Source: Candidatus Woesearchaeota archaeon (GTDB lineage Archaea > Nanobdellota > Nanobdellia > Woesearchaeales > UBA525). From it: a stretch of 32,678 nt of DNA. The position numbers were made by a program, and so were the translations under genes. The stretch is from positions 1-32,678 of the forward strand of contig DAHXMN010000002.1 in assembly GCA_027371725.1 (NCBI GenBank), in the 5' to 3' direction. A model generated the notes under the pieces. The model was not told the DNA's origin and did not search any database. It was given only the letters and a program-made list of their open reading frames with translations. Below, piece after piece: positions 13,375 to 29,053 of the stretch (the first letter of the stretch is position 1; each line of letters opens with the position of its first letter).

Positions 13375-14865
13375 CTACGCGAGTGAGCCGAGCGTCGCGG
13401 CGAGGGCGGCCGCGGCCAGGAAGTAGATCGTGAGGCTCACGACGAGGAAGATCGGGAGGTTGCGGATCCCGTCCTTGACGTTGCCCTTCCGGATGACGCT
13501 CACGATGGAGGCGCTCATGATCGCGCTGACGCTGAGCATCATCACGCTGAACCAGCGGAAGTTCGTCACCATCTGCGCCGACGTCTTGATGTTGAGCTTG
13601 AGGAAGCCGTTCGATGCGCCGCCGAGGTTGAGCGAGCCGGTGATCTTCACGATGATGGTGAGGAGCGTCGTGGCGAGGGCGAAGAGCAGGGGCGCCATGA
13701 CGATCGAGGCGAAGGTGATGAAGATCGCGTACGTCGCGACGTTGGCGCTCATCTCCTTCTTGAGGATCTTCGTCTCCTGGATGTCCAGCGCGATCTTGCT
13801 GAGCAGTTCGGCGATCTCGCCGCCTGCGGCCATCCCCTCGAGCAGGATGCTGACGCTGCGCCGCAGGATGAGGGAATCGTACCGCTCAGTGAAGCGGATG
13901 AGGCTCTCGCTCAGCTCCTCGCCGGCGAGCGTCTCCTTCGCCACCTCCTCAATCTCCTTGGCGAGCACGCCGAAGTTCGGCCGGACGGCGAACCAGAGGG
14001 CGCGGTCGATGGGCATGCCCGCGCTGATGTTCGCGCTCGCGAGCTGGAGGAAGTCGGGGAGCACCTCCTCGAGCTCCTTGGTGCGGCGGTAGATCCTGAT
14101 GTCGAGGTAGACATAGATGACCATCCAGGTGAAGAGGTAGAAGAAGGCGAAGACCGCGGTCCAGACGCCGAGGTAGAAGAGGAGCAGGCCCATCGCCGGC
14201 TTCCCGGCGAGCGCAGCGAGGATGAGCGTGGAGAGCGTGAAGAGGGCGGTGACCGTGAACGCGATGTAGAAGACGGCGCGTTTCACGTCGTCCGGGTCGG
14301 CGGTGTAGCCCGCCTTGAGCAGCAGGGCGGAGAGCATGCGCTTCCGGTACTGCGCGGTGCGCCGTTCCTTGCGCTTCCGCAGGGTCTCCTGGCGCTTCAG
14401 CCTCCGCCGCGTGCGTTCCAGCGCGGCGTCGTCGGCCGCCGTGCGGCGTTCCATCTCTCTCGAATGGCCGACAGCGGCTTCCGGCCCAGGCCTCTCAGCA
14501 GGATCCGCGGAGGGTTTCTCGGCCGGCTTCCGAACGGGTTTCTTGATCGCTTCCCCGGTCGGTTTCACGACGGGCCTCTCGGCCGTCTCTTCAGCAGGTT
14601 CCTTGCTGGACGCTGCCGCACGGTCGCGGCGGAAGAGCCGAGTGAACGAAAAACGACTGCGAGGATCCTTTGAAGGAGGAGAAGGGAGGGACGGAGGAAC
14701 TGGTGAGGAAGGGGAGGGGAGGGAGGAGAGGGATTCTGGAGGCGTGGAGACGAGAGGCGCGGAAGCGCGAGAGGGCTTCTTCGGCCGAGGCTTGCGCGTC
14801 GTCACGGCCTTCTTCGCAGCCAGAGGTTCTTCCGCAGTCCGGACTCCCTTCTTCGTCGCCACCAT
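13375..14865 (-). CDS. T2SSF-domain platform protein (TadC/EpdK-like) with ~195-aa disordered N-terminal extension
   Basis: Single T2SSF-type domain (LPDFLQLASANISAGMPIDRALWFA and ILLEGMAAGGEIAELLSKIA) flanked by TM helices. The N-terminus is P/S/K/R/E-rich. I chose ATG 14865; the track start GTG 14874 is possible. Confidence 0.8.
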   Translation of the reverse strand: MVATKKGVRTAEEPLAAKKAVTTRKPRPKKPSRASAPLVSTPPESLSSLPSPSSPVPPSLPSPPSKDPRSRFSFTRLFRRDRAAASSKEPAEETAERPVVKPTGEAIKKPVRKPAEKPSADPAERPGPEAAVGHSREMERRTAADDAALERTRRRLKRQETLRKRKERRTAQYRKRMLSALLLKAGYTADPDDVKRAVFYIAFTVTALFTLSTLILAALAGKPAMGLLLFYLGVWTAVFAFFYLFTWMVIYVYLDIRIYRRTKELEEVLPDFLQLASANISAGMPIDRALWFAVRPNFGVLAKEIEEVAKETLAGEELSESLIRFTERYDSLILRRSVSILLEGMAAGGEIAELLSKIALDIQETKILKKEMSANVATYAIFITFASIVMAPLLFALATTLLTIIVKITGSLNLGGASNGFLKLNIKTSAQMVTNFRWFSVMMLSVSAIMSASIVSVIRKGNVKDGIRNLPIFLVVSLTIYFLAAAALAATLGSLA

Positions 14866-14914
14866 GAATCGCACCAGTCTACCGTGTTTAGTTATTATTC
14901 CCGTTCGTTCCTCC

Positions 14915-15709
14915 TCACATGTCCATCGGCGGTCTGCTGCTCCTGATCACCGCGAGGAACATGAATTGGATGAACCCGATGAAGAGCGCGATGAAGAGGT
15001 AGGCGAAGAGGCTGAGGTTCAGCCCGAGGAAGCTCGTCAGGACGATGAGCATGATGGTGCCGAGGCTCGGCACGATGATCGCGATCATCATGTAGAACAT
15101 CGCCATCGGGTTGAGCTTCCGGCCGTACTCCTTCACCGCGATCTGCTGCTCCCGGACGACCTGGTCGAAGACGGCGGAGAGCGCGGTCGTCACCTCGCTC
15201 CCCGTGCGCATCGAGTTGAGGAGCTGCCAGAGCATCTTCCGCAGGTCGGGGCTTGGCGTGACGATAATCATCTCATTCAGCGCGTCCTCCATCGGCGTGC
15301 CGAGGTCGACGCGCTCGACCAGCTCCTGGAAATAGATGCCGATCGTCTCGTAGTTCTTCGCGAGGTTGCGGAACGCCTGGTAGAGCGGCACGCCCGACTC
15401 GAGCTCGATGATGAGGAACCGGCCGGCGTAGACGATCTCCTTGTTGATCTCCTTGTTCAGCTTCTGGATGCGGAGGTCGACGTACCCCATGAGATAGAGG
15501 AAGGCGAGGAAGAAGACGATCGGGAAGAAGAGGAAGACGATCGGCTTCGGGATGAAGAGGAAGATGACGATGGAGAGGCCGAAAGCGAGGACGAAGCTCG
15601 TGAACGCGGTCTTCCGGACGTAATACTCCGGCGTGTCCGGCAAGCGCGCCTGGAGCAGCTTCAGCTTCAGGCCGGGGACGCTGCGCGCGATGATCTTGTA
15701 GAGCTCCAT
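14915..15709 (-). CDS. T2SSF-domain platform protein (TadB/EpdJ-like)
   Basis: Single T2SSF-type domain (YFQELVERVDLGTPMEDALNEMI and LLNSMRTGSEVTTALSAV) plus TM helices. I chose ATG 15709 with an upstream GGAGGA/GAGG; the track start GTG 15733 lacks an SD. Confidence 0.8.
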   Translation of the reverse strand: MELYKIIARSVPGLKLKLLQARLPDTPEYYVRKTAFTSFVLAFGLSIVIFLFIPKPIVFLFFPIVFFLAFLYLMGYVDLRIQKLNKEINKEIVYAGRFLIIELESGVPLYQAFRNLAKNYETIGIYFQELVERVDLGTPMEDALNEMIIVTPSPDLRKMLWQLLNSMRTGSEVTTALSAVFDQVVREQQIAVKEYGRKLNPMAMFYMMIAIIVPSLGTIMLIVLTSFLGLNLSLFAYLFIALFIGFIQFMFLAVIRSSRPPMDM

Positions 15710-15755
15710 GCGAACTGCCTCTTCCTCCGGCACGGACGGGCGCGACGTCCCGCGT

Positions 15756-17399
15756 CTACGGCGCCGGCCGCGGGGGCGCCGCGACGCCCTTCGGCTCGCC
15801 CTGCTCGCTCTCCAGGAACGGCTGGTCCGCCTTGATGAAGCGGAACAGGTTCTCCTTGTCCGTGTAATACTCTGCGATGACGCGGCCGACGGCGTCGACG
15901 GTGAAGATGCTGTGCTTCACCAGGTAGTCGATGACGCGGCGCTTCTCCGCGATCTCCGCGGCCACGTCCTTGTCGGTGAGGCCGGTGTAGAGCTTCAGCG
16001 TCTGGAGGAAGCTCCTGCTCTTGGCGACCTGGACGAGCCGGTCCTTCTTCGGGTCGTACTGGAGGATGACATTGAAGCCCGCGTTCGGGAGCGTCTCCGC
16101 AATCTGGAAGGTGCGGCGCTGGCCGCTACGCCGGTTACGGAACTGGACGATGATGAGCGAGATCGCCGGCAGCATGACCTTCGGCACCTCGATCGGCGGA
16201 TTGGTGAGACGCTCGATCGCCTCCTCCGCGGTGTTGGCGTGGAACGTCGCGTAGACGGAGTGGCCGGTGTGGATCGCTTCGAAGAGCGTCTCCGCCTCCC
16301 TCTTGCGGCGGACCTCGCCGACGATGATGCGGTCCGGCCTCATACGGAGGCTGTTGACGAGGAGGTCGCCCATGGATATCTCCCCCTTGCCCTCGGCGTT
16401 CGGCAGCCGCGTGTTGAGCGGCACCCAGTGGAGGAACCGCGGCAGTTGGATCTCGCGCGTGTCCTCAATGGAGAGGACGCGCTGGTTCGGCGGGAAGAAG
16501 TTCGCGAAGCAGTTGAGCGCGCTCGTCTTGCCGGAAGCGGTGCCGCCCGCGATGATGGCGCTCATCTCGTAGTGCATCGCCATCCAAATCCACGCGGCCG
16601 CCTCGCTGCTGATCGTGCCGTACTTGACGAGCCGGGTGATCGTCCACGGGTCGCGGCTGAACTTGCGGATGGTGATCGTGTTGCCCGCGGTGCTGATCGG
16701 CATCAGGGTCGCGTTGACGCGGTCCCCCTCGTTCAGGTGGGCGTCGAGCAACGGCTCCAAGACGCTGATCTGCCGGCCGACCTTGCGTCCGATGAGCGCG
16801 GCGTAGTGCCTGATCTGCTCCTCGTCCTTGAGGAAGACCGTCGTCTTGAGCCAGCCGTGCTTCTTGTGGTAGACCCAGACCGGCTCGTCCGACTGGTTGA
16901 TGACGATCTCCTCGAGCTGCGCGTCGTCCATGAGGAGCTCGATGTTGCCGAGGCCGAGGGAACGCGCGATGAGGTAGCTGGTGAGGAAGCCGCTCGTCTC
17001 CTCGTCGGCGTCCGGGAAGTGCTTGCGGATCAGGTCGGCGATCGTGTCGGCGAAGACGCCCTCGACCTGGCCGGTCTTCTTCGCGTCGAGGATGTCCACG
17101 ACGCCGAGGCTCACCTGCTTGATCAGCTCCTGGCGGATCTTCTCGAGCAGGAATTCGGTCGTCTTGGAGATGGAGCTGATCCGCACCTCGTAGATCGGGA
17201 CGAACTCGCCCTTCACCTTCTGGACGGTGATGATGATGGGGATGTCCTTCGACTTGTACTCGTACTGGTCGATGACCGCCTCCTTGACGGCGGCCTTCGG
17301 GTTCCGAGAATCACGGGAAGAAGCCTTGCGGACCGCTTTGCGGGGACGAGAAGAGTTCGCCTTCTTCCGCTTCACAGTAGACTTCGCGCCGCGTGCCAA
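15756..17399 (-). CDS. type IV filament assembly ATPase (FlaI/TadA/VirB11 superfamily)
   Basis: Walker A AGGTASGKTS, Asp box VLSIEDTREIQLP, Walker B PDRIIVGEVR, His box HTGHSVYATFHANT. TTG start is preceded by GAGGTGA at 7 nt. Basic ~40-aa N-terminal tail. Confidence 0.9.
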   Translation of the reverse strand: MARGAKSTVKRKKANSSRPRKAVRKASSRDSRNPKAAVKEAVIDQYEYKSKDIPIIITVQKVKGEFVPIYEVRISSISKTTEFLLEKIRQELIKQVSLGVVDILDAKKTGQVEGVFADTIADLIRKHFPDADEETSGFLTSYLIARSLGLGNIELLMDDAQLEEIVINQSDEPVWVYHKKHGWLKTTVFLKDEEQIRHYAALIGRKVGRQISVLEPLLDAHLNEGDRVNATLMPISTAGNTITIRKFSRDPWTITRLVKYGTISSEAAAWIWMAMHYEMSAIIAGGTASGKTSALNCFANFFPPNQRVLSIEDTREIQLPRFLHWVPLNTRLPNAEGKGEISMGDLLVNSLRMRPDRIIVGEVRRKREAETLFEAIHTGHSVYATFHANTAEEAIERLTNPPIEVPKVMLPAISLIIVQFRNRRSGQRRTFQIAETLPNAGFNVILQYDPKKDRLVQVAKSRSFLQTLKLYTGLTDKDVAAEIAEKRRVIDYLVKHSIFTVDAVGRVIAEYYTDKENLFRFIKADQPFLESEQGEPKGVAAPPRPAP

Positions 17400-17437
17400 C
17401 CGACCCTCACCTCTCTGACCAGCCCCGGGAGAGGCTG

Positions 17438-17509
17438 TTTATAAACGTTTCGACAGCTTGCGCGAAGGAAAAACGCGGCGCGAAGAAAGAGCGACAAAAC
17501 GTTTATAAT
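17438..17509. promoter_or_regulatory. divergent promoters sharing an inverted 12-nt AAACGTTTATAA module
   Basis: TTATAAACGTTT at 17439-17450 is the exact reverse complement of AAACGTTTATAA at 17497-17508. One faces the ATPase operon and the other faces the phosphatase remnant. Confidence 0.5.
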
Positions 17510-17524
17510 CGTGCGACACAGTCA

Positions 17525-17826
17525 ATGGCCTCGGGGCGGCGAGGAACACGTATTCTGTCCACGGACCGACGATGGATAACGAACAGGGCCTCGCCGCGGG
17601 CTGGGCGCCGGGAAAACTCCCGGAAACGGGAAGGAAACGGGCACGAGAACTGGGACGAACCGTCTCTCACGAGGTCTTCGATGCGGTCTTCTGCTCCGAC
17701 CTGAAGAGGACGCTCGAATCCGCGGAGCCCGGTTCCGCGGATAAATATAGAATCATCCAAGATAAGAGATTGAGGGGAATGCGATTAAGGGATTGTGAGC
17801 GTTCCGTGCGACGGATGATTTCCTGA
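17525..17826 (+). pseudogene. decayed histidine phosphatase (phosphoglycerate-mutase family) remnant
   Basis: HGPTMDNEQGLAAGWAPGKLPETGRKRARELG...FDAVFCSDLKRTLESAE matches the N-terminal third of the family. The catalytic Arg of RHG is Val. The plausible N-terminus (MASGRRGTRIL, ATG 17525) is in another frame. Conserved G/W/G residues of the next motif read RGMRLRDCER. The frame stops at 17826, well short of full length. Confidence 0.45.
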
Positions 17827-17887
17827 TATCGCTCCAAGGCAACGCTGGAGAAAAGCGCGATATTTGAGGGCGAAGACGGTAGAACGC

Positions 17888-19042
17888 TCACTCCTTGCTG
17901 CCGATGAGGTCGCGGAGCTTGCCCAGCTCATCCTGGAAGAGCGAACGCTTCTTATCGTACTCCTTGTAGCCCTTCTCGAGCTCACCCATCTGCTTCTTGA
18001 TGTCCGTCTCCTTGCTGAGCAGGTTGAACGCGATCGCCTTCTTCTTCAGGCCGTCGAGCTCGTGCGCCATCTCCGCCTTGTGCTGCTCGAGGCCGTTGAG
18101 CAGCTTCTCCGTCTCCATCCGCTTCTTGAAGAACGTGTCGAACTTGTCCACGATGCCTTGGGCCTGTTTCTCATAGGTGGTGATCGTGCCCTTCCGCTCG
18201 CGGACCTTCTCGAGGATGGAGTCCTGCACCTTGAGTATCTTCTCGCCGTGCTCCTTGGACGCCTTGATGAGCGGGTCGAGCTCCTCCTCCTTCTTGCGTT
18301 GGATGTCGTGCTGGATCGTGTCCGCGATCTCGTGGAGCCGTGCGAGCCGGTCCTCCTCGTCGGTGATGGACTTCCCCGCGTTGGCGATCTCGCCGTCGAT
18401 GGCGTCGACCACCTCTTTCAGCGCGGCCAGCCGTTTCTGGAGCGAGGACTCCTTCTCCTCCATCGTCTTTGTTTCCTCGCGTTCCTGGGTGAGCTTCTCC
18501 TCCTCGCCCTTGATCTCGTGGAGGAGCTTCTCGTACCGCTTCTCTTCCGCGTAGAGCTTGCGGTGGACGTCGTCCACCATCTTCTCGTAGTCGACCTTCT
18601 GCTGGATGATGTCCTGGTCGATGGACTGCTTGAGGGACTCGTAGTGCTTCAGCTCGTCGAGCTCGTGCTTCACTTGGTCGATCTCGTCCCCGATGTCGCC
18701 CTTGAGCGAATTGTAGGCGCGCTTGATGTCCTCGAAGCCGGACGTCTCCTTCTCGAGCTGCTTGAGCGTCGTGTCGACCTTCCGGACGAACGCCTCTTTC
18801 TTCTGCTCGTACTCCTTGGATTTCTTCTCGACCTCGCGCTTCGTCAGCTTCTTCTCCACCAGGTAGGTCTTGCTGAGGCTGTACTCGATGCCGATAAGGC
18901 CTTCCTCGTCGAGGAACTCCGCCCACTCGCGCACCACGTCCTTGGAGACGCCGAGCTCCTTCGAGGCGTCCTCGAGCGCGATCTTCTTCCGTTCGGAGAC
19001 GATCTCCACGAGCTTGTCCACGCCGGTCTCGATCTTCGCCAT
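17888..19042 (-). CDS. winged-helix N-terminal domain + ~320-aa coiled-coil protein
   Basis: MAKIETGVDKLVEIVSERKKIALEDASKELGVSKDVVREWAEFLDEEGLIGIEY is wH-like. The remainder is continuous E/K/L/D-rich and heptad-like. TATA 19065-19072 lies 23 nt upstream of ATG 19042. The track ORF start 19141 crosses the promoter. Confidence 0.75.
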   Translation of the reverse strand: MAKIETGVDKLVEIVSERKKIALEDASKELGVSKDVVREWAEFLDEEGLIGIEYSLSKTYLVEKKLTKREVEKKSKEYEQKKEAFVRKVDTTLKQLEKETSGFEDIKRAYNSLKGDIGDEIDQVKHELDELKHYESLKQSIDQDIIQQKVDYEKMVDDVHRKLYAEEKRYEKLLHEIKGEEEKLTQEREETKTMEEKESSLQKRLAALKEVVDAIDGEIANAGKSITDEEDRLARLHEIADTIQHDIQRKKEEELDPLIKASKEHGEKILKVQDSILEKVRERKGTITTYEKQAQGIVDKFDTFFKKRMETEKLLNGLEQHKAEMAHELDGLKKKAIAFNLLSKETDIKKQMGELEKGYKEYDKKRSLFQDELGKLRDLIGSKE

Positions 19043-19072: not shown

Positions 19073-19187
19073 GTTATCGTTGGGGAAATCGCCAGGAAGG
19101 AGATTCAGGAAAGGATCAAAAAGAATTCGAGAAGATTTCAAAGAAAAACAGTCGAGGAACGGTCCCTGCTCAGCCGCGATCCCCCGC

Positions 19188-22100
19188 TCAGCTGCTGTCT
19201 TCGCACGGCGACCACGTGTAGACGTGCATCGTCACCGGCTGGCCCGCGTAATAGACGACCTTGGTGAACTGGATGAGGTCCTTCATGCACCCGTTCACGC
19301 CGGTCACGTTGAGCGCCTCCTTCGTCTGATCGCCGAGACAGCAGCTGATGTAGTTGGCCGTCCCGTTCGGCACCCACTCCCCGACTGTTGCACCCTCGCA
19401 TGCCTGAGGCACGGTGGCGTTGCAGAGCTTGGTGTTGCTGCACGCGACGCTGCATCGGTCCTCCCAGTCTGCGCAGTCGCTGCAGTCGCCGTCGTTCAGC
19501 GTGAAGTTCTGCTCGACGCGGCCGGCCATGGGGAAGCGGACGTTCAGCGTCTGCGCCCGGTACCCGTCCATGCGCGCCACCACGGAGTGGTTCCCTGACG
19601 ACACGTTCGCGATCGTGTAGCCGCCGGAATAGTTCGTCAGGTTCGCGAACGCGCCGCTGATCGCGACGCTCACCGACGCGCCGTCCAACGGCGAACCGGA
19701 CGAGTCAGTCACTCGCCCGTACAAGTCGGCGACCATCGGGCACGGGCCGAGATGTTCGCAGCCGTTCTGGTCGTTGCCGTCACAGTTCGAATACCCGGGA
19801 CTGCAGTTGTACTCGCACTTCGGCGCGCTTCCCGGAGGCAGGCTGCAGTTCACGACGAGCGTGCGCGTCGTGTCGGCCGACAGGCTGACATCATCCCCCG
19901 GACACAGCGTCGAATTCGGCGGCACCGCGCCCGTGCACACGTACGGGACGCACTGCGTCAGGTTCGACGCGTTGAGATGATAATAATTCCAGCACGCGAC
20001 CGTGCAGTTCGCGGCGCAATCCCCGTACGCGAGCGTCGTCCCGGAGTCGCACGAGGCGCCGCAAGAGCCCGCCGCGCAGATATAGGCTGGCGGCCCGTTG
20101 ATGCAGATGCCGCTCGGGTCGGCGGGCGAATAGTACTGCGTCGGCTTCGCGCCGTCGCACGCGTTCGGCGTGCGCGGATCAGTCGAGTTGTACACCCACG
20201 AACACCCCGTCGTCGCCGAGCAGTTCGTGGGCGTCGTCTGCACCGAGCAGCACGACGACCCCATGGCGAGCGTCGCAGTACGATTGGAGCCCGACTGGTA
20301 CGACCTCGTCGTATCCACGGAACACTTCCCCGTCAGCGACCCCGAGAAAGAAGCGGGAACCGCGCACAGGAAGGAGGCGGTGGTGCCGGACCAAGAAGAA
20401 GCGACGAACGTGCACGACGACCCGTTCACGGAGGCGAGGATGCTGTTCACGTTCGTGACCGACGACGTGCACTTCAGCGTCACGTTCTCCCCCGGACAGA
20501 ACGACGCGTTGGCGAACGACGCCCCGGTCACCGCCACCGGACAACCGCTATCGCCATGCGGCGACGGACCCTGACCGCCACGATTCAACGTGTCATAATC
20601 CCACTGGCCGTTGCAGTTATTATCATACCCATCCGTGCACATCGTCGAACCGGACTCGCTCAGGCTCGTCGCCCACAACCAAGAAGAACCGGTATAATGG
20701 CATCGGAGCGTGGTGAGACCGCCGCATTGCCACGTCGACAACGAGCACTCATTGGCTGACGTGCACGACTGGGACTGCGGTCCGCACGAAGACGAGCTTG
20801 TGCAGACACCACTCTGACACACGGGGGAGAACTGCTCACGCGTCGCATTATTGTAATACGCATAATCATTGTATGTCTGCACGTTCGTGCACGAATCAGA
20901 CGCGCACGGCGTCGCCGGACCACACACCGTCCCGTCCGCATTGTTCTGGCACGAGCCGCCGGAGCACGTCTGGCACACGCCACACGACCCGCAGCTACCA
21001 CCGCAACCGTCAGGACCGCACGTCTTCCCCGCGCAGTTCGGCGTACATGTATTGCACGCCCCGTTGCTGCAACCATTGGGGCAATAGTTGCTCGTACTGC
21101 TCACTGCGCCGGTAGAATCACAGAAATATTCGTGGAGAGTATAGGCGTCAGAGCAGAAATCGGTGTAAGAATTGCTGCCGACAGTCACCGTCCCTTGCAA
21201 GTTGAAATTCTGGGTATACTGATCAGTCCCGTCATTGTCGGAGTCGGAACAGGTGCCGCCGCCGCTGCACGTGCCGCCACAGGTCGAGTCGTTCACGTAC
21301 GAACCGCCGGTCGTCGGAACACAACTCGAACCGCTGCAAGCATACGACACCGTACAAGCATTATTGCAATTCGACGTCGTATAAGAACCGGAAGCATCAA
21401 CAGCGCACAAACCGCCAGCACCGGAACAAGAATAATGAGTAGTGCCGCCGCTGCACGTGCCGCCGCTGCACGTGCCGCTCGAACAATACGTTCCATAACC
21501 ACAAGAAGTGCCGCAAGAATCATTATACTGGTTGCCGCAAGCATAACTGGAGGCGGACAAGGATGAACAAGGCGTGGAGGGAGTCGGCGTGCAGGTGTTC
21601 GCGGAAGGCGACCAGGCGCTGGCGTTGCAGACCTGTGCAAGGCTTCCCTGGCAGTTGCCTGAGCCGCAGGTGATGGTCTGTTCAAGCTGTTTGGGAGTCG
21701 TCAGGTTCCAGGTCGCATAGATTACACTAATCTTATTTGGGTCAGCCTTCGCGTTTTGGCATTCTGTCGTGGAAGTGCTGACATATTTGTACTTGAAATT
21801 TGTACCGCTCTTATCGAGCTTGAATTTGCAGGAGGCGGGCAACCCGCCGGACGCGGGTATCCATTTCATGTATGTGTTGTAACTGTGACCGTTTTGCATC
21901 GTATTGACGCTGAAGCACTTGGTCTTGCCGATGCTAGCGAAGGTGTAGCAGACAGTAAACGGAGGAGCGCCGGCGTTAACGGCCACATCATTCGCGATTT
22001 GCGTCGTGGGGACCAGGATCCCGTCGACCACCCCGTCGCAGTTGTCATCGACGCCGTTGCATGTTTCCTGGTTGTCGTTCGAGTATTGACAGTAGCTGTA

Positions 22101-22403
22101 GCCATCGCCATCAGCTACGCAAGAACCGGTCAGGCAAGGCTTCGGGGGGTTTGTGCAGTCGCTATCTGATGTGCAAGAGACATTATCGTAGTAGTAGAAA
22201 CCGCAAACAGGCGCGAACTGGTAAAGGACGCAGTTGCCGGAGATGTCCGTCTGTTCGCAATACCATGCGGCGCACATCGCGTGCGCCGGCTGCGGCGCAT
22301 GCAACAGGAAGAAGAACGCGAAGACGATCAAGAAGAGACCGACGAACCGGAGAGTCCCCGTCAGGAATGAATGCTTGCCCACCACGATACTCGCCTCCCT
22401 CAT
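19188..22403 (-). CDS. large secreted cysteine-rich surface protein (~1071 aa)
   Basis: Signal peptide MREASIVVGKHSFLTGTLRFVGLFLIVFAFFFLLHAPQPAHA. About 98 Cys by my count. CNGVDDNCDG and CTDGYDNNCNG metal-binding-like motifs, a CxPNCAGKTCGPDGCGGSCGSCG repeat, and a CarboxypepD_reg-like domain (LYGRVTDSSGSPLDGASVSV...GGYTIANV...). Many N-x-S/T sequons. A TATA-like box at 22433-22441 lies about 30 nt upstream of ATG 22403. Confidence 0.85.
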   Translation of the reverse strand: MREASIVVGKHSFLTGTLRFVGLFLIVFAFFFLLHAPQPAHAMCAAWYCEQTDISGNCVLYQFAPVCGFYYYDNVSCTSDSDCTNPPKPCLTGSCVADGDGYSYCQYSNDNQETCNGVDDNCDGVVDGILVPTTQIANDVAVNAGAPPFTVCYTFASIGKTKCFSVNTMQNGHSYNTYMKWIPASGGLPASCKFKLDKSGTNFKYKYVSTSTTECQNAKADPNKISVIYATWNLTTPKQLEQTITCGSGNCQGSLAQVCNASAWSPSANTCTPTPSTPCSSLSASSYACGNQYNDSCGTSCGYGTYCSSGTCSGGTCSGGTTHYSCSGAGGLCAVDASGSYTTSNCNNACTVSYACSGSSCVPTTGGSYVNDSTCGGTCSGGGTCSDSDNDGTDQYTQNFNLQGTVTVGSNSYTDFCSDAYTLHEYFCDSTGAVSSTSNYCPNGCSNGACNTCTPNCAGKTCGPDGCGGSCGSCGVCQTCSGGSCQNNADGTVCGPATPCASDSCTNVQTYNDYAYYNNATREQFSPVCQSGVCTSSSSCGPQSQSCTSANECSLSTWQCGGLTTLRCHYTGSSWLWATSLSESGSTMCTDGYDNNCNGQWDYDTLNRGGQGPSPHGDSGCPVAVTGASFANASFCPGENVTLKCTSSVTNVNSILASVNGSSCTFVASSWSGTTASFLCAVPASFSGSLTGKCSVDTTRSYQSGSNRTATLAMGSSCCSVQTTPTNCSATTGCSWVYNSTDPRTPNACDGAKPTQYYSPADPSGICINGPPAYICAAGSCGASCDSGTTLAYGDCAANCTVACWNYYHLNASNLTQCVPYVCTGAVPPNSTLCPGDDVSLSADTTRTLVVNCSLPPGSAPKCEYNCSPGYSNCDGNDQNGCEHLGPCPMVADLYGRVTDSSGSPLDGASVSVAISGAFANLTNYSGGYTIANVSSGNHSVVARMDGYRAQTLNVRFPMAGRVEQNFTLNDGDCSDCADWEDRCSVACSNTKLCNATVPQACEGATVGEWVPNGTANYISCCLGDQTKEALNVTGVNGCMKDLIQFTKVVYYAGQPVTMHVYTWSPCEDSS

Positions 22404-22432: not shown

Positions 22433-22441
22433 TTTTTAAAT
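22433..22441 (-). promoter_or_regulatory. TATA box of the Cys-rich surface protein gene
   Basis: ATTTAAAAA on the minus strand, about 30 nt upstream of ATG 22403 and only 3 nt from the alternative ATG 22430, which it therefore excludes. Confidence 0.55.
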
Positions 22442-22474
22442 GTTGTGTCGAGCGCGGGAAAAAGCGGGCCGCGT

Positions 22475-22804
22475 TCAGAACCGCACGAGGTCGCCTTTCT
22501 TGAGTGAGAGCAGGCCTGCTTTCGTCTCGATCGCGTAAGAGAAGCGGGCTCGCGGCCGGTATGCGGCGAAGGGGCGGAAAGAGCATTTCGCGTCGACGAC
22601 GCGCTTCCGTTCGTCGAGAAAATAGACGTCGATTGTCCAGAAGACGAAGAGCATGTGGAACCCGACGTTGACCTCGCGGCCGAAGTCGAAGACGTACGCG
22701 ACGCCGTCCCGCGGCTTGCGGAACATCAGGCCCCAGCCCTGCGTCCACCCGTTCCGGAAGAAGATGAGGGCGGGCGTCCTGCCACGCGTGTCGGTGAGGA
22801 CCAT
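22475..22804 (-). CDS. DUF192 family protein
   Basis: GWGLMFRKPRDGVAYVFDF and FHMLFVFWTIDVYFLDERKRVV fit the DUF192/COG1430 pattern. ATG 22804 has a weak TATA (ATAAAAAC) upstream. The track ORF's 74-aa extension was rejected. Confidence 0.7.
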   Translation of the reverse strand: MVLTDTRGRTPALIFFRNGWTQGWGLMFRKPRDGVAYVFDFGREVNVGFHMLFVFWTIDVYFLDERKRVVDAKCSFRPFAAYRPRARFSYAIETKAGLLSLKKGDLVRF

Positions 22805-23114
22805 GATTGTCCTGGCGGAAGGGCGGTTTTTATGGTTTGTGATTGCGCCTCTGCCGCGGATTCGCTCCGCGGTCTTGCCGGCTGCTCGCGTCTCGCTGTG
22901 CTGATTGAGAGACCTCCTCCCCGTAGGTCCTCGGTAGCGGGACGCTACCGGGACCACGGCGAGCCTCGTGCTCGCCTGTGGGGGCAACCCCCCGTCGGCC
23001 TTCGCCGTTCTTTTCTTCACGCTCACCCTTTGGCCGGCGAGACATCATCCGCGATGAATCCTCGCTCGAAGAAGGGAGGCGGGACGCTGCATCTGTCGAG
23101 GGCGGCTGTTCCGC

Positions 23115-24095
23115 TCAGCAGATGGTCGCGTTGAGCTTGCTGAGGCCGTAGTCATGCGCCGGGTCGTCGTAGTGCGTCGCGTCCAGCTTGAACCAGGAGG
23201 GGAGCGGGCTTCCCTCCGTCGGGCAGTAGAGCGTCGCGTTCCGTCCGGAGAAGTAGTACGCGTCCACGGTGGAGCGGTCGGTGTAGACCGGGAGCCCTTG
23301 CGCGTTGAGGTCGTCGAGATTGATGATCGAGGCGATGCCGTACTTCGACGTGCCGTTCAGGTCGCCCTGGAGGCGTTGGAGGTAGCTCGGCGCGTACGGG
23401 TCTTCGCGGTAGTAGCCCTGCTGGATCTCGTCGTCCAGGTTCGCGGTGTTGTTCCCCGTGACGAGGTCGGAATTGTTGTAGGGGCTCTCCCGGATCGTGT
23501 TCGGCAGCTTGCCGTCGGTGGAGACGCTGTACGCCGGGTCGCGGAGGTCGAGGATCGAGACCTCCGTGGTGAACCATTTCTGGTAGTCCCAGCGGGCGAG
23601 TCCGCGCGTGTCCGTCACGTTGACGGTCATGAGGAACGAGACGTCGATGCTCCATGGCGTCGATTGGTTGAGCGCGATGTCCTGCACGGTGACGTTGAGC
23701 GCGATCCCCTGCTGCCGCGCCTCGTCGTTGACGCGGCCGAGGTAGTCGCCGAAGGTGCTGTTCGTGAGGATGTCGTACGGCTGCCCGTCGACCGTGCCGT
23801 TCATGAACGCCTCGATGAAGAGCGGCGTCGCGTTCGTGACGTACACGCCTTCCTGACTGGTGTACTGCTCGATCGCGATCAGGCTGCGGAAGCCCGCGAT
23901 GTACGTCGCCCGCGGCACGTCGCCGTGGAAGTCGCTCAGGAAGTCGCTCATCGCCTGGATGCGGGTGACGACGCTCCGGCTCCGCTCCTCGCCCGTCGGA
24001 AGGGTCCGCGCGTACATGATGGCGAGGAGGATGGCGACGATGAGGAGCGCGGAGATGAGGTAGACGACGCCCCGCCGTCCGGGAAACGCGGTCAT
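23115..24095 (-). CDS. prepilin-like (pseudopilin) protein, 326 aa
   Basis: MTAFPGRRG|VVYLISALLIVAILLAIMY, then an N-glycosylation-sequon-rich extracellular domain. ATG 24095 overlaps the upstream stop (ATGA). The 997-aa track ORF is a composite running out of frame through the VWA gene. Confidence 0.75.
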   Translation of the reverse strand: MTAFPGRRGVVYLISALLIVAILLAIMYARTLPTGEERSRSVVTRIQAMSDFLSDFHGDVPRATYIAGFRSLIAIEQYTSQEGVYVTNATPLFIEAFMNGTVDGQPYDILTNSTFGDYLGRVNDEARQQGIALNVTVQDIALNQSTPWSIDVSFLMTVNVTDTRGLARWDYQKWFTTEVSILDLRDPAYSVSTDGKLPNTIRESPYNNSDLVTGNNTANLDDEIQQGYYREDPYAPSYLQRLQGDLNGTSKYGIASIINLDDLNAQGLPVYTDRSTVDAYYFSGRNATLYCPTEGSPLPSWFKLDATHYDDPAHDYGLSKLNATIC

Positions 24096-26791
24096 CGGTC
24101 CACCTCCAGCGCCGCTTCCGTCGGTCCCCAGAGGTAGGGCACCTGCTGGACGAGCGTCACGATGATCTCGAGGTCCTGCTGGTCGAGGTTGACGAAGACG
24201 CGGCCGTCGCCGTTCAGGTCGAGCTGCTGGAGGATGTGGTAGACGCCGTAGTCGTACGCGTCGTTCGGGTCGTAGCTGCCCGTGCCGTGGCTCGCGTTCG
24301 TGTACGTGCAGTTCTTCGCGCCCGTGTAGGTCGAGGGGATGGAGAAGTTGAGGAAGTGGCCGTCCTCGAACTCCACTTCCCAGTTGCACCCTTCCGTCGT
24401 CGAGAGGACGGCGCTCCGGGGGATGGTGCTGTTGATCATGCCCGTGTAGATGATGGAGTTGTTGCCGCTGCAGTTCGTCGCGTTCCCCGAGTTGTCGGCG
24501 ATCATCATCCTGATCGTGTTGTTCGTCCCGTTGAGGAGCGCGGCGGGGATGGCGACGAGGAACGGGTCGCCGAGCGTGACGAAGTCGGCGTTGTAGTCGC
24601 TCAGGTTGTAGACCGGCTGGCCGTTGACCGAGAGGAAGGTCGTCCAGTACGGGCCGGAATAGCTCGTCACTGCTGCGTCGGTGATCCTGAGGCCGGGCGG
24701 GATGGCGAGCGTCGTCGTGCAGTTCGCGAACTGCGGCGTCTCGAACTTCACCTGGATCTCGTTCGGCGACGGCGGCGTGACGATGGGGGTGTAGTTGAAG
24801 CTGAGCGTGCTGCCCGCGAGGAGGTGGCTCGGGGCGTAGCTTCCGTTGATGACGAGCGTCTGCGCGGAGAAGTTCGCGATGAGGAGTATCTGGTCGCTGA
24901 TGTTCTGGTATATCTGTTCCAGCTGCGAGACGTTCGTCGCGTCGTAATAGAGGGAGGAGTTGCACGCGACCTGCTGCAGCAGCGTCTTGTTCGCGTCGGC
25001 GCCGAAGCCGATGGTGAAGACGGTGATGTTGTAGTTGTCGCACGCGTTCTGGCCGGCGTCGATGGTGGACTGCGGCGCGCCGGCGGTGTCGGCGGTGCCG
25101 GCGTAGTCGTCGAAGTTGTCGCAGCGGTAGTTCGGCTGTCCGTCGGTCATCACTATCATGAACCGCTTGTTCACGGAGCCATTGAGCATGTTCTTGGCGC
25201 GGTTGATGCCGCAGCAGATGCACGTGCCGCCGTTCGCGGTGTAGCCGTCGATCTGCGTGCCGAGCGCCGCCTGGTCGGTGGTGAGGTCCATCGCGTTCGT
25301 CACCTGGTCGTTGAAGCTGTCGAGGCCGACGCGGTCGCCCGAGACGTTGAGGATGATGGACGCGGCGAGCTTGTCCGCGGACTGCGCGATCTGGAGCTTG
25401 GTCCGGTTGCAGATCGTCGCGGTCGGCGTGGAGTAGCTGCCGGCCGTCCAGCCGGGGTTGCAGGCGCCGCACTCCTGGTTGCTGCAGCTCCCCGGGTAGG
25501 CGCACTGCAGGTAGTAGGAGAAGAACCACCAGCTGCACTTGTACTTGCAGAGCAGGCCGGTGTAGTTCTCGCCGCAGTCGCCCATGCTGCCGGAGACGTC
25601 GGTGACGAGCGTCGTGTCCGCCGGCTGCCCCGCCTGGACGAACGTGACGTTGGTGAAGTTCGTCGTGCCGAGGCGGAGCGGGATCGTCGCCGGCGCCCAG
25701 GAGAGGTTGTGCGCCTCGAGGATGATGTTCTGGGTCGCGTTGCTGCCCGGGCTGCTGAAGACCGTCTGGTTGCCGATCCTGAGGAAGACGGTGTAGTTGC
25801 TGTCGTACGAGAGGTTGAGGTACCAGTCGGTGATGATGCCTGGCGCGTAGAACGAGTCGTACAGGTTGATGATCCCGTCGATCTGCGGGAAGGCGTACTG
25901 GCCCCAGCCGGTCGGCGTCGTCGAGTCCTGGAACGCGTCGGTGAGGTAGCTGAGCTTGAGGTAGCCGCCGGCCACGTAGGAGTCGGCGAGCGCTCCCCGC
26001 TCGACGAGGGTGATATTGTTCATGCCGGGGACGATGTCCCCCTTGCAGCCGGTGAGGTTCCACGCCTGCACGGTCATCAGCGTGGCGTCGCTGGTGAGCG
26101 TCGTGCACGCCGCGCCGTTGACGAGGAGGTCGAAATCAGCGACGGTGTCGAGCTGCGCGGTGATGTCCGTGATCGCGGTCGCGTTGACGTCCGAGGGGAC
26201 GGGGCCGAGCTGCACGGTGATGTTGCCCTGGCCGGTGAAGCCGCCGAAGTACGCGATGACAAAGCTCTTCTTGTCCCTGATCCGCTTCAGGTAGGCGGTG
26301 CTGGTGCTGCCGGAGAGCGCCTCTCCCTGCTGGATGCCGGTGATCATGCGCTGCGCCGCCGCCCGTTCGCCGATGGCGCCGCTCCGGTTCTGCTGGAACA
26401 GCGCATCCCCGCCCATGCTGAGCGTGACGCCGACATCGCCGGGAAGGAGGCCCTGGAGCGCGTCGCGGCTGAGGTTGACGGCGAGCCCGGTCTGGTTCGT
26501 CGCCCAGAGGTCGCCGATCGCCTGGAGGACGGACACGGAAGGGTCGGGGATGGTGCCGTTGCTGACAAGCTGCTGGGCGAGCGTGCTGTTGAGATCGCCC
26601 GCCCTGATCGTCGAGAGAGCGAGGAGCGCATCCTGGGCGTAGTGGCTCGTCTGCGTGAACGGCGGCGCTTCCGCACGGAAATGGAGCGCGACGACCAGGG
26701 CGGCGAAGAGGAGGAGGCTGGCGAGGAGCGCGTCGAGCGTGAAGAGGATGGCCCGCCGGCCGCCGTGCCCTGTCCTCGCGTTCGTGGTCAT
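24092..26791 (-). CDS. prepilin-like N-terminus + von Willebrand factor A domain protein, 899 aa (TadG-like architecture)
   Basis: N-terminus GHGGRRAILFTLDALLASLLLFAALVVAL. MIDAS LVTDVSGSMGD, RFMIVMTDGQPNY and ITVFTIGFGADAN. A Cys-rich insert follows the MIDAS motif. Many sequons. GGTG SD upstream. Confidence 0.85.
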   Translation of the reverse strand: MTTNARTGHGGRRAILFTLDALLASLLLFAALVVALHFRAEAPPFTQTSHYAQDALLALSTIRAGDLNSTLAQQLVSNGTIPDPSVSVLQAIGDLWATNQTGLAVNLSRDALQGLLPGDVGVTLSMGGDALFQQNRSGAIGERAAAQRMITGIQQGEALSGSTSTAYLKRIRDKKSFVIAYFGGFTGQGNITVQLGPVPSDVNATAITDITAQLDTVADFDLLVNGAACTTLTSDATLMTVQAWNLTGCKGDIVPGMNNITLVERGALADSYVAGGYLKLSYLTDAFQDSTTPTGWGQYAFPQIDGIINLYDSFYAPGIITDWYLNLSYDSNYTVFLRIGNQTVFSSPGSNATQNIILEAHNLSWAPATIPLRLGTTNFTNVTFVQAGQPADTTLVTDVSGSMGDCGENYTGLLCKYKCSWWFFSYYLQCAYPGSCSNQECGACNPGWTAGSYSTPTATICNRTKLQIAQSADKLAASIILNVSGDRVGLDSFNDQVTNAMDLTTDQAALGTQIDGYTANGGTCICCGINRAKNMLNGSVNKRFMIVMTDGQPNYRCDNFDDYAGTADTAGAPQSTIDAGQNACDNYNITVFTIGFGADANKTLLQQVACNSSLYYDATNVSQLEQIYQNISDQILLIANFSAQTLVINGSYAPSHLLAGSTLSFNYTPIVTPPSPNEIQVKFETPQFANCTTTLAIPPGLRITDAAVTSYSGPYWTTFLSVNGQPVYNLSDYNADFVTLGDPFLVAIPAALLNGTNNTIRMMIADNSGNATNCSGNNSIIYTGMINSTIPRSAVLSTTEGCNWEVEFEDGHFLNFSIPSTYTGAKNCTYTNASHGTGSYDPNDAYDYGVYHILQQLDLNGDGRVFVNLDQQDLEIIVTLVQQVPYLWGPTEAALEVDR

Positions 26792-26883
26792 TCGTGCAGC
26801 ACCGTTCCGTCAGTCTTCATCGTTTATCGTTTATCGTCGTTCAACACCCTCGTCGTTCAATGTCCGCTCCGCACATCTCATTC

Positions 26884-28029
26884 TCATCGGTTCTCCCACA
26901 CCGTGACCGTCATGATGAGGATGCGTCCTTGGTAGGCGACGAGCCGCCGGACGGCGACGAGGTGCTGGACGCCCGTCGAAGGGATGGCGACCGCGGCGCA
27001 GTCGGCCGAGTCCTGCAGGCTGGTCGCGTTGAGGCGGTCGGCGGTGTAGTTGAGGAGCGGCTCGCCGGTCCCGTTGATCGTACCCGCGAGGCCGCCCAGG
27101 TAGTAGACGTCGCCGTCCCCGTCCGTGAAAGCGGCGGCGTAGTCCTGCTCCGCGGTGGACGCGACGAGCGACTCGTAGCGCGACTCGTTCGTGAAGGAGA
27201 TCATGGAGGCCGTCGCCGGGATGGAGCTGATGGTCTGATTGGAGAGGTTGAGGAACGTGTCGTTCACCCCCGTCCCGGCCGCGCTCGGCGAGAGGTTCGC
27301 GGGCGTGAGGTTGAGGCCGTAGAGCTCCGGCAGGCTGACGTTCCCGATGAGGAAGAGGGTGCCGCCGCGCTGCACGAAGTCCTCCAGGTCCGCGGCCTTC
27401 TGGGCGTCGTACGGCGGGGTCGTCGCAGAGAGCCGCGGCTCCTCCATGACGATGAGGTCGTAGTTCGTCCGGTCGGTGAGGAGCGCTCCCAGCCGGTCGC
27501 CCTCATAGACTGTCGCGTTGAGCGCCTCCATCGCGGGGAGGAGCTGCTCGCCGCCGGCGTCGTACGCGTAGTACGCGGTCCGGACCGGCCGCCGGAGCGG
27601 CGTCTGCTGCGCGCTCACCGACGGGCTGCCGATGAAGCAGGAGGCGCCAATCGGCACGTAGGAGCCGTCCCGCTCCTGGAGCGTGATCGCGTACTCGTAC
27701 CTCGTGTCGAGGAGCGCCTTGCTGCCGTCGTAGTCGCCCTGGGCGAGCGCCGCCAGGTATCCTGCCTTGCGCATGCTCAACCCGTCGTCGGTGAGGAGGC
27801 CTGCGGAGATGACGTCATCGCTGCGCCATGAGGGAGGGTAGCCCGCGCCCATGAGCCGCTGGGAGACGGCGTCCGCGCTCCGCGCCACGTCGCTGAAGTC
27901 GTCCGGGACGAGGACGGTCTTGACGAGCGTGGAGAGGACGACGAGGAGCGCGAAGAGGAAGAGGAGGAAGCCGACGGTGTAGTCGAAGGTCCAGACCTGC
28001 CCCCGCCGCGCGGCCCTCGTCCTCGTCAT
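26884..28029 (-). CDS. prepilin-like protein, 381 aa, with possible GATase1-like (ThuA/BatD-type) middle domain
   Basis: MTRTRAARRG|QVWTFDYTVGFLLFLFALLVVL. The middle segment NYDLIVMEEPRL...DLEDFVQRGGTLFLIGN resembles non-catalytic class-I amidotransferase-like folds (weak, by eye). GAGGAG SD lies 6 nt upstream. Confidence 0.7.
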   Translation of the reverse strand: MTRTRAARRGQVWTFDYTVGFLLFLFALLVVLSTLVKTVLVPDDFSDVARSADAVSQRLMGAGYPPSWRSDDVISAGLLTDDGLSMRKAGYLAALAQGDYDGSKALLDTRYEYAITLQERDGSYVPIGASCFIGSPSVSAQQTPLRRPVRTAYYAYDAGGEQLLPAMEALNATVYEGDRLGALLTDRTNYDLIVMEEPRLSATTPPYDAQKAADLEDFVQRGGTLFLIGNVSLPELYGLNLTPANLSPSAAGTGVNDTFLNLSNQTISSIPATASMISFTNESRYESLVASTAEQDYAAAFTDGDGDVYYLGGLAGTINGTGEPLLNYTADRLNATSLQDSADCAAVAIPSTGVQHLVAVRRLVAYQGRILIMTVTVWENR

Positions 28030-28161
28030 GGTCTTCTCCTCGACACCGTATTCAGCTCGATAGGATGTACGGAATATAAATAATGGAATATATATTTTTA
28101 AATAATTTTTATTAAATATATCATTGAAAATGTATCTTTTATAATGTATTGTTGCCGGGCA

Positions 28162-28554
28162 TCATGGTTGCGTGATGATGATGGAGCCGCCGATGGTCTT
28201 GATGGTGTCGCTCCCGATGGCGAAGGAGCCGCTCACGGGCGGGATGTCGCGCGAATAGGTCGTGCCGTCGTCGAAGGAGAGGGTGAGCGTCGAGGCATCG
28301 TTCGCGATCGCGTACTGCCTGCCGTCCAGCTCGTCGGGGAGGAGGATGGTGCGCCGGTAGCCGTCCTGCACGTTGGAGGCGAGGAGGAGCTCCTGCTGGA
28401 GCGAGGAGGCCTCGTCCTGGAGCGCAGCGAGCCCGGTCTGCCGGGAGGCGTACTCGAGGTAGGCGGCGACGAGGATGAGGACGACGGCGAAGAAGACGAA
28501 GGCGAGCATCACCATGAAGGAGAACTCGACCGCGATCTGTGCCGCGCGCGCCAT
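28162..28554 (-). CDS. minor pilin-like protein (class III signal peptide), 130 aa
   Basis: MARAA|QIAVEFSFMVMLAFVFFAVVLILVAAY. The start lies 3 nt after the stop of the upstream pilin-like gene. Confidence 0.8.
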   Translation of the reverse strand: MARAAQIAVEFSFMVMLAFVFFAVVLILVAAYLEYASRQTGLAALQDEASSLQQELLLASNVQDGYRRTILLPDELDGRQYAIANDASTLTLSFDDGTTYSRDIPPVSGSFAIGSDTIKTIGGSIIITQP

Positions 28555-28557
28555 CGT

Positions 28558-29031
28558 TCAGCCCTCCGTCACGTTGACCCGGCCGTCCGGGAGGGCGGTG
28601 ACGACGAGCGTGTGCGGCCCCTTCGTGATGCCGACCGAGCCGGTGAGATTGGCGGCGCTCCACCCGTTCTGGTCGTAGTCGCCGTGGGACGAGGAGACAG
28701 TGAACGTGACCGACGTCCCTTGGAACGAGACGGACTCCACATCGGCCGGGAGGTCGACGGTGATGGTGCGTGAGCTCGGCGCGCCGAGGTAGTAGACCGT
28801 GTCCGCGGCGTCGACGATCTGCGTGGCCGCCCGCTCGATCGAGGCGCTCGTCACCTGGTCCTGGAGCTGCGCCGTCTGGGTGAAGTAGAGGATGATCAGC
28901 GGCAGGGCGAGGAGGAGCGCGAAGCCCATGACGAAGAGGTACTCCATCGAGACCTGTCCGCGGCAGGAGAGCGGACGGCGGACGCGGAAGGGCGCGCTGC
29001 GTTGCCGACGGAGAAGCCCACCTCTTTCCAT
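28558..29031 (-). CDS. minor pilin-like protein (class III signal peptide), 157 aa
   Basis: ...RPLSCRG|QVSMEYLFVMGFALLLALPLIILYF. TATA TATTTAAA at 29054-29061 lies 23 nt upstream of ATG 29031. The pre-cleavage segment is unusually long (26 aa), so the true start could be internal and non-ATG. Confidence 0.75.
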   Translation of the reverse strand: MERGGLLRRQRSAPFRVRRPLSCRGQVSMEYLFVMGFALLLALPLIILYFTQTAQLQDQVTSASIERAATQIVDAADTVYYLGAPSSRTITVDLPADVESVSFQGTSVTFTVSSSHGDYDQNGWSAANLTGSVGITKGPHTLVVTALPDGRVNVTEG

Positions 29032-29053
29032 GCGGTGCTTCCGGGACGGCCGA

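Follow-up and report, generated by a model that had tools for sequence, protein, structure and literature searches.

What does a gene for a large secreted protein, unusually rich in cysteine (Cys), do among the pilus genes of an archaeon? This question is raised by a stretch of 32,678 nucleotides from a Candidatus Woesearchaeota archaeon (assembly GCA_027371725.1, contig DAHXMN010000002.1, positions 1–32,678 of the forward strand), hereafter the window, in which such a gene occupies positions 19188–22403 on the - strand within a type IV pilus (T4P) locus. A preliminary description of this DNA had proposed that the product is a matrix, adhesin or filament-associated component, and the conserved synteny reported below supports this proposal through gene context. 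We found by sequence comparison that the protein belongs to a family with a constant C-terminal tail, a variable front, conserved Cys residues and a conserved position in the pilus locus. From this context we infer that it may be a Sec-exported, disulfide-stabilized, probably N-glycosylated, non-pilin accessory adhesin of the T4P locus, a reading to which we give about an even chance.

The gene and its signals are as follows.

19188–22403, - strand: gene for the Cys-rich secreted protein, 1071 amino acids (aa); stop codon at 19188–19190; alternative starts GTG at 22385 and ATG at 22430.
22278–22403, - strand: predicted Sec-type signal peptide, aa 1–42, with K10 and R19, hydrophobic region (h-region) FVGLFLIVFAFFFLL and the end AHA↓M; judged by eye.
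22433–22445, - strand: TATA-like promoter element ACATTTAAAAACA, conserved in the orthologous locus; DNA homology with that locus begins here.
19108–19150, - strand: oligo-T runs 3' of the stop codon, archaeal terminator-like, read from the sequence.

Translated from the ATG at 22403, the protein contains 98 Cys (9.1%), an even number as first counted, and every Cys lies beyond residue 43. Its composition is dominated by S, G, T, C, A and N, and proteins from the neighboring locus genes contain 0–2.2% Cys. The sole hydrophobic segment is N-terminal (aa ~13–35) and is followed by HAPQPAHA↓M. The cleavable-looking signal peptide noticed at the outset satisfied the heuristic pattern of the Sec type (positive n-region, h-region, small residues at -3 and -1). 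It is conserved in the orthologue P0002, analogous ones are present in P0167, P0170, P0172, P0182, P0188 and an open reading frame (ORF) of locus L008, and AxA-like ends recur across the family. We rejected the possibility that the protein is itself a pilin, as VGKHSFLTGTLRFVGLFLIVFAFFFLLHAPQPAHA↓M places an AxA site after the hydrophobic stretch and no class III pattern was seen by eye. As already described, the protein lacks a C-terminal transmembrane (TM) segment (hydrophobicity check of the whole protein), and the NCBIfam scan matched no archaeal sorting signal in it, neither a C-terminal anchor nor PGF-CTERM. It contains 26 N-x-S/T sequons, compared with 17 ± 3.6 in shuffled sequences.

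The oligo-T runs after the stop codon suggest that the gene is probably monocistronic, and together with the TATA-like element they point to a transcription unit of its own. Part of the earlier view of a near-leaderless promoter thus stood, namely the promoter itself, whereas the exact start codon is uncertain by up to 6–9 codons. The database start call, ATG 22430, is ATC in the orthologue, ATG 22403 is GTG, and GGGAGG-N9-GTG (22385) is kept in both loci. The ORF can be extended upstream to 22748 on the - strand. Rfam and tRNA scans of the window gave no matches.

The window has a GC content of 62% and is full of long spurious ORFs on both strands, and the GC content at third codon positions (GC3) of the gene is below that of its neighbors; both features would fit a spurious ORF or a decaying pseudogene. 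This explanation was ruled out by intact orthologues and paralogues in at least 8 loci, free of frameshifts and stops, by a ratio of nonsynonymous to synonymous substitution rates (dN/dS) below 1 in every segment, by a Pfam domain above its cut-off, and by conservation of Cys and of the TATA element. One full-length orthologue was found, P0002 (1233 aa, intact), in the Woesearchaeota metagenome-assembled genome (MAG) A_NAN_12 (locus L001). Between the two proteins 93 of 97 aligned Cys (96%) are conserved, compared with 74% of other residues. Overall dN/dS was 0.32 (dS 0.50), and for aa 396–580 it was 0.28 (dS 1.7). For the adjacent coiled-coil gene the ratio was 0.037 (dS 0.21), and its protein is 99% identical to the L001 copy. 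These comparisons indicate a real gene under selection and not a chance ORF. No blastn match was found between window positions 20702–21453 and L001 positions 2505–3667, a gap with which the aa 396–580 segment coincides, and P0002 carries an extra ~120-aa module there. The gap, the high dS and this insertion therefore indicate that the central part was replaced by recombination.

The part of the protein that defines the family is its C-terminus, which had been taken as featureless. The CarboxypepD_reg-like beta-sandwich proposed nearby was borne out by Pfam, and it is followed by a conserved domain that had been missed.

19497–19724, - strand: CarboxypepD_reg (transthyretin-like) beta-sandwich, aa 894–969; PF13620, 48.1 bits against a cut-off of 32.3, E 1.5e-12.
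19191–19508, - strand: new C-terminal domain of ~105 aa with 10 Cys, aa 966–1071; alignments A2 and A4 and the domain profile.

These two domains form a constant module, i.e., the last ~180 aa, at the very end of otherwise differing mosaics. The consensus of the Cys domain is NFTLxDGxCxxCADWEGRCSxxCSG..C..VP..C.GA.PG.W...CC.G...GCMxDLV.F.RLV.Y.G..VT..VYTWKPC. The profile built from A4, the alignment of the C-terminal domain, matched 24 of 304 proteins collected, and in all 24 the domain ends 0–3 residues before the C-terminus. The window protein matched it with E 2.6e-45, with the CarboxypepD_reg domain preceding and the match ending 3 residues before the C-terminus. No Pfam match to the 10-Cys domain was found in 18 members, and no PDB sequence matched it. 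AlphaFold predicted the 185-aa module as a transthyretin-like sandwich with a small mixed beta domain after it, at a predicted local distance difference test score (pLDDT) of 83, and of 77 for the 10-Cys domain alone. Foldseek matched only the sandwich, and the best match of the 10-Cys domain model was not significant (E 2.7). The AlphaFold2 (AF2) model of the CarboxypepD_reg domain (pLDDT ~85–93) matched the transthyretin-like domains of carboxypeptidase D/N and teneurin.

Family members contain 6–10% Cys, have intact ORFs and, wherever the N-terminus is complete, carry Sec-type signal peptides by eye. The N-terminal halves of the members in L008, L017 and L019 differ. No catalytic Pfam domain was detected in the 7 members scanned, and one member carries FG-GAP integrin-like repeats. 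In all five loci checked (the window, L001, L008, L017 and L019), GC3 of the family gene was 0.1–0.2 below that of its neighbors; in the window the values were 0.76 and 0.90–0.95, respectively. Amino-acid or codon composition, lower expression or frequent lineage exchange could account for this. A metagenome scan with A1, the alignment of the protein and its orthologue, retrieved no relatives, and a scan with A3 (6 sequences) retrieved two loci only. A word-index search with A4 gave no matches, which is probably an index limit, given that HMMER had retrieved the family from the full library.

The variable front is built from short Cys-rich modules. All motifs named in the preliminary description were present by regular expression, including CNGVDDNCDG at aa 115, CTDGYDNNCNG at aa 589, CGPDGCGGSCG at aa 462, four copies of CSGG, and YTDFC...EYFC at aa 413–450.

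22023–22079, - strand: first MopE-like CxxxDDNCDG motif, aa 109–127; regular-expression match, PF11617 below cut-off.
20702–21453, - strand: variable central mosaic, ~aa 318–567, with CSGG runs, YTDFC..EYFC and CGPDGCGGSCG; no DNA homology to the orthologue.
20259–20651, - strand: second MopE-like motif and immunoglobulin (Ig)-like beta domain, aa 585–715; a module common to many relatives.
19776–19955, - strand: 4-Cys module CxPYVCTG...KCEYxCxxGY, aa 817–876; single here, tandem in relatives.

Internal repeats had been envisaged, but self-BLAST found none in the protein, so it is a mosaic of single-copy Cys-rich modules and not a repeat protein. Scanning it against NCBIfam added no match. A full HMMER scan with the protein, covering 1.84 billion representatives, gave 1115 matches, nearly all of which share only individual Cys-rich modules. 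The matched stretches of relatives in the representative search cover aa 580–800, and proteins in L006 and L008 resemble the target at the aa 585–715 module. When the whole protein was compared with PDB sequences, aa 631–696 showed a weak, marginal match to an Ig light chain (E 0.004). The 4-Cys module is repeated in some relatives, with 9 stretches in P0168 and 17 in P0169. Such modules are promiscuous, being present also in proteins that have enzymatic domains (PAD_porph, PPC and M43).

Several of the proteins sharing these modules were observed in their own right. P0165 (4898 aa, on a 26-kb ENA contig) was the best non-orthologous match (E 3e-129, 7 stretches) and shares aa 537–804. A Cys-rich protein of a low-GC (40%) Woesearchaeote (L006, 232–3311) shares the CxDGYDNNCNGQWDYDT motif and the Ig-like module at 43% identity and has a LamG-like end; the gene directly after it encodes a protein in which an archaeal Pilin_N-like N-terminus is fused to a LamG-like domain. 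In L002 (1–13984), three giant Cys-rich genes that bear MopE and TSP_3 motifs lie in tandem (>1975, 1355 and 1327 aa). They share only short modules with the window protein and adjoin peptidase M54 and central-metabolism genes, not pilus genes.

The MopE-like motifs also bear on what the Cys residues do. If they bound metal instead of forming disulfides, the protein could be a MopE-like copper scavenger or redox protein, in line with the weak match to PF11617 (Cu-binding_MopE, a "putative metal-binding motif") and with the cupredoxin-like gene found at the corresponding place in L011. However, the PF11617 score was 22.1 bits over two stretches against a cut-off of 27; the two motif-level matches are real, but membership in the MopE type is not established. 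Only two such motifs occur in 1071 aa, and no His- or Met-rich Cu sites were noted. Besides, the number of Cys is even and their spacing is like that of small disulfide-knotted extracellular modules, and the D/N-rich motif resembles loops which we take to be Ca-binding and of the TSP3 type. A metal-binding function thus appears very improbable.

The proposed function is read from gene context. The pilus locus of the window reads, all on the - strand, DUF7289, DUF7266, DUF7287, VWA, 326-aa protein, DUF192, the Cys-rich protein, coiled-coil protein, ATPase, TadC and TadC.

23115–29190, - strand: five prepilin-like (class III) proteins, i.e., 326-aa, 899-aa VWA, DUF7287, DUF7266 and DUF7289; Pfam and N-termini.
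22475–22804, - strand: DUF192 protein, upstream border of the slot; Pfam, and synteny in L008, L009, L011, L017 and L019.
17888–19042, - strand: coiled-coil protein, 384 aa, cytoplasmic, conserved; weak HTH_DeoR (N-terminal helix-turn-helix) and SMC-like matches.
13375–17399, - strand: pilus core, with FlaI/TadA-like ATPase (15756–17399) and TadC/T2SSF proteins (14915–15733 and 13375–14874); Pfam T2SSE and T2SSF.

The class III-like N-termini of the five proteins read RRG↓V, RRA↓I, RGQ↓V, AAQ↓I and RGQ↓V, and the block is syntenic in L008, L011, L017 and L019. Since these five neighbors accompany T2SSE and T2SSF genes, the label of pilus locus is correct, and the pilus-gene neighborhood of the preliminary description (T2SSE, two T2SSF, DUF7287, DUF7266, DUF7289 and VWA proteins) is real by Pfam and N-termini. 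An archaellum was rejected, as the ATPase scored below the NCBIfam FlaI equivalog cut-off and archaellin genes are absent.

Gene neighborhoods were obtained for ATPase relatives and for members of the family, membership being defined by a match to the C-terminal domain profile.

Window: 1071-aa protein in the slot; full locus visible.
L008: 1350-aa member in the slot (truncated to 958 aa in the JGI call; signal peptide present in the full ORF); full locus visible.
L017: 1355-aa P0182 in the slot, and a further member, P0201 (468 aa; 2071–3477), at the opposite end of the pilin block.
L019: 838-aa P0188 in the slot.
L012, L013 and L016: contigs begin inside or just before the family gene, with the coiled-coil gene next; ATPase and TadC also present in L012.
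L001 (JACWAN010000022.1): pair of orthologue and coiled-coil gene, flanked by 2-hydroxyacid dehydrogenase and histidine phosphatase genes (1–1517 and 6473–7734).
L014 (P0172): family gene followed by DUF3179 and YceI.
L009: slot empty (467–531), pilus locus otherwise syntenic.
L011: 121-aa cupredoxin-like gene on the opposite strand (8287–8652), pilus locus otherwise syntenic.

In 8 of 9 informative loci (the window, L001, L008, L012, L013, L016, L017 and L019), the family member is immediately followed by the coiled-coil gene, and L014 is the sole exception. Homologues are therefore linked to the pilus locus by gene context and are not scattered through genomes. Among the 8 linked loci, four show the complete DUF192-[protein]-coiled-coil slot, occupied by the family in the window, L008, L017 and L019, and four show T2SSE/T2SSF next. 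The informative loci span 77–86% identity of the ATPase and 50–62% GC. The core order (pilins, VWA, ~327-aa protein, DUF192, slot, coiled-coil, ATPase, TadC, TadC) is syntenic in the window, L008, L011, L017 and L019, and in L011 and L019 synteny reaches the upstream eIF2alpha, Nop10 and PAC2 genes. The presence of both P0182 and P0201 in L017 means that one pilus locus can carry two proteins with the same tail. P0217 (L018), located outside pilus loci, was first taken as a distant member; it had no match to the domain profile and was left out of the tally.

These observations are consistent with an accessory adhesin built in the following way. The signal peptide would carry the protein across the membrane, and ~49 disulfides would lock its small Cys-rich modules. 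The constant C-terminal module would act as a handle that docks the protein on a conserved partner, most likely the complex of VWA protein and minor pilins of the pilus and otherwise the envelope. The long, module-shuffled and fast-evolving N-terminal part would be exposed and bind a host cell or a substrate. Disulfides, glycosylation, docking with its partner, and adhesion with its target are what we infer for the protein. In Nanoarchaeota, a related DPANN group, surface proteins and T4P parts are those that diversify fastest (PMC6142677).

The comparison of loci also supplies points that weigh against an accessory adhesin, and several of them would be expected if the protein were instead a general envelope, surface layer (S-layer)-associated or matrix protein, physically independent of the pilus, whose gene sits in a recombination-prone slot. 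Such a protein may share regulation with the locus and could form, for example, a protective or cohesive surface coat. First, the family is facultative, as the slot is empty in L009 and holds the cupredoxin-like gene in L011. Second, the bona fide member P0172 lies outside a pilus context, preceding DUF3179 and YceI. Third, a separate promoter and terminator of the window gene mean that its expression may be uncoupled from that of the pilus genes. In addition, GC3 is lower in all five loci, suggesting a different evolutionary regime or frequent exchange, and among the many structures matched by the CarboxypepD_reg fold is the Sulfolobus S-layer protein SlaB. S-layer-like proteins are also associated with T4P loci in only some genomes (Makarova et al., PMC4858521).

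Other points also speak against an accessory adhesin. The signal peptide was assigned by eye and not by a predictor, although the Cys pattern makes an uncleaved membrane anchor with most of the protein in the cytoplasm unlikely. The coiled-coil protein, whose gene is the one most tightly linked, is cytoplasmic and cannot be an extracellular docking partner. Furthermore, the genes on both sides of the pair in L001 are unrelated, and the coiled-coil gene of L019 is followed by a NUDIX gene (13909–14430). Either the locus can split after the coiled-coil gene, or these short contigs were misjoined; the L001 contig is 7.7 kb long, and a search for the ATPase orthologue of the A_NAN_12 MAG gave no match closer than 86% identity. 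On the other hand, an independent coat does not readily explain why the place directly before the coiled-coil gene has been kept in 8 of 9 loci despite considerable divergence, or why the L001 pair stays together even after leaving the rest of the locus. If such a coat were essential, sister lineages would not lack the protein, and the window protein has neither a membrane anchor nor a known archaeal sorting signal. We regard an independent coat as possible, though it carries only a minor share of our confidence.

The strictly terminal position of the conserved module allows two further explanations. In one of them the protein is the cargo of an activity like that of the type II secretion system (T2SS), in which, once the protein has been exported by Sec and has folded, a short pseudopilus made by the locus pushes it through the S-layer and the C-terminal module serves as the recognition signal. 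A Sec signal peptide combined with a terminal folded module in otherwise unrelated mosaics, the fixed place beside the ATPase operon, and the second protein with the same tail in L017 would all fit, and T4P-associated secretion of a matrix protein has reportedly been described in Clostridium perfringens, judging by the title of one study. However, T2SS-like export of cargo other than pilins is not known to us from any archaeon, substrates of the T2SS do not as a rule carry a linear or terminal signal, and the data do not separate cargo from simple docking. We consider cargo of this kind doubtful. The other explanation, which we judge unlikely but slightly less so, is that the constant module is an archaeal surface-display or secretion tag of a previously unknown sort, read by the T4P-like machine of Woesearchaeota. 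If so, the pilus locus would serve to display or secrete interchangeable, disulfide-knotted cargo that binds hosts, and would be an archaeal counterpart of the T2SS or of the C-terminal-domain sorting of the type IX secretion system (T9SS).

If the protein is an accessory adhesin, the family would matter for cell contact. Attachment to other cells is the presumed way of life of DPANN archaea, Woesearchaeota among them, yet to our knowledge hardly any of their contact molecules are known and studies of a Woesearchaeota pilus are lacking. The family offers a concrete candidate contact molecule that is fast-evolving, module-swapping, disulfide-rich and genetically tied to a conserved pilus locus, and with a function read from gene context it provides a testable handle on DPANN cell-cell contact. 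The constant tail could be used as a search handle, as an antibody or pull-down target, and as a marker for host-binding repertoires in metagenomes. It also adds an unannotated domain without a Pfam or PDB counterpart. Finally, how such organisms oxidize Cys residues outside the cell becomes a question if an archaeal extracellular protein has the ~49 disulfides predicted here, for which the even number of Cys and their 96% conservation give indirect support; no thiol-oxidoreductase was detected among the window genes scanned.

Additional features of the neighborhood were observed. Window genes of archaeal type include those for eIF2 alpha and gamma, Orc1/Cdc6, ATP-dependent DNA ligase, FtsZ and RpoE', and the nearest relatives of window genes are in Candidatus Woesearchaeota MAGs. 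The VWA protein (24092–26791, - strand; 899 aa, 20 Cys), whose N-terminus GGRRA↓ILFTLDALL... is prepilin-like, is also kept in L008, L011, L017 and L019. It looks like a large pilin-like adhesin of the TadG/PilY1 style and is the obvious candidate partner for the Cys-rich protein. The coiled-coil gene has a TATA element ~26 nt upstream of its own ATG. Before the ATPase gene, the intergenic region 17400–17887 (- strand) measures ~490 bp, compared with 47–62 bp in L009 and L017, and contains two near-palindromic TATA-like elements, GATTATAAACGTTTT and AAACGTTTATAAAC, ~45–110 nt before the ATPase start. Between the 326-aa gene and the DUF192 core, ~310 bp (22805–23114, - strand) hold no convincing gene, whereas L011 and L017 have a 146–147-aa gene at this place; the longest DUF192 ORF (183 aa) probably reaches too far at the N-terminal end. 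The Orc1/Cdc6 gene, which lies within a few kb of the pilus locus, adjoins a 363-aa ORF without a Pfam match (11272–12327 and 10137–11228, respectively, both on the + strand), and a replication origin may lie near the Orc1/Cdc6 gene.

How does the protein compare with known systems? With regard to its modules, CxxxDDxCDG, CGxDGCGGSCGxC and YTDxC..EYxC are common to ~1100 proteins and relate it to the MopE/TSP3-type modules of giant surface proteins of DPANN archaea, the candidate phyla radiation (CPR) and myxobacteria. However, these modules are promiscuous and without defined function, whereas only a few dozen proteins share its C-terminal module. Similarly, by Pfam score and predicted fold aa 894–969 are a bona fide member of the CarboxypepD_reg (PF13620) domains of surface proteins, but this generic beta-sandwich spacer or binding unit makes up only 7% of the protein, whose function it does not define.

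With regard to the locus, many archaeal T4P loci carry predicted adhesin or S-layer-like proteins with signal peptides (PMC4858521), and the idea of an adhesin therefore has precedent. The earlier view that no characterized archaeal pilus system has such a partner holds for characterized systems, but partners of this kind had already been predicted (PMC4858521). Like the proteins in that census, including the Cys-containing components of Thermoproteales, the window protein is a large secreted protein in an archaeal T4P locus with conserved Cys and proposed disulfides; a cytoplasmic coiled-coil protein lies beside the ATPase, and association with the T4P occurs in some genomes only. The type of the window locus matches the description of subclade 4F of Makarova, Koonin and Albers (2016), which is marked by a cytoplasmic coiled-coil protein (arCOG07564) beside the ATPase and whose ATPase clade also occurs in nanoarchaea (PMC4858521). 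The proteins of the census belong to other families, some with C-terminal TM anchors, and neither the constant C-terminal module nor a module-shuffled architecture with 9–10% Cys is described there. Woesearchaeota are outside its coverage, the words "DPANN" and "Woesearchaeota" being absent from the text. We found no description of the family in literature on Cys-rich pilus or surface proteins of Woesearchaeota and DPANN, and it appears to be undescribed in its terminal Cys domain, its mosaic architecture with 9–10% Cys and its fixed slot in the Woesearchaeota locus. As a general kind, large secreted proteins of T4P loci with a predicted adhesin role are already known from bacteria and have been predicted in archaea (PMC4858521).

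In function the protein would resemble the bacterial T4P tip adhesins PilY1/PilC. The window protein is a large non-pilin with a predicted Sec signal peptide, and its gene lies in a T4P locus together with minor-pilin and assembly genes. In PilY1 the C-terminal domain is conserved and the N-terminal part varies, an arrangement that the conserved tail and variable front of the present family resemble. A vWA domain belongs to the same system as well, here on the neighboring 899-aa pilin-like protein. In contrast, there is no homology in sequence or domains, and no PilY1/PilC beta-propeller family was found in the protein with Pfam and NCBIfam (E <= 1). Its C-terminus consists of a transthyretin-like sandwich and a new Cys-rich domain, its Cys content is extreme, its host is an archaeon, and its association with the pilus is read from gene context. 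The protein is most likely a functional analogue of PilY1, to which it is not homologous.

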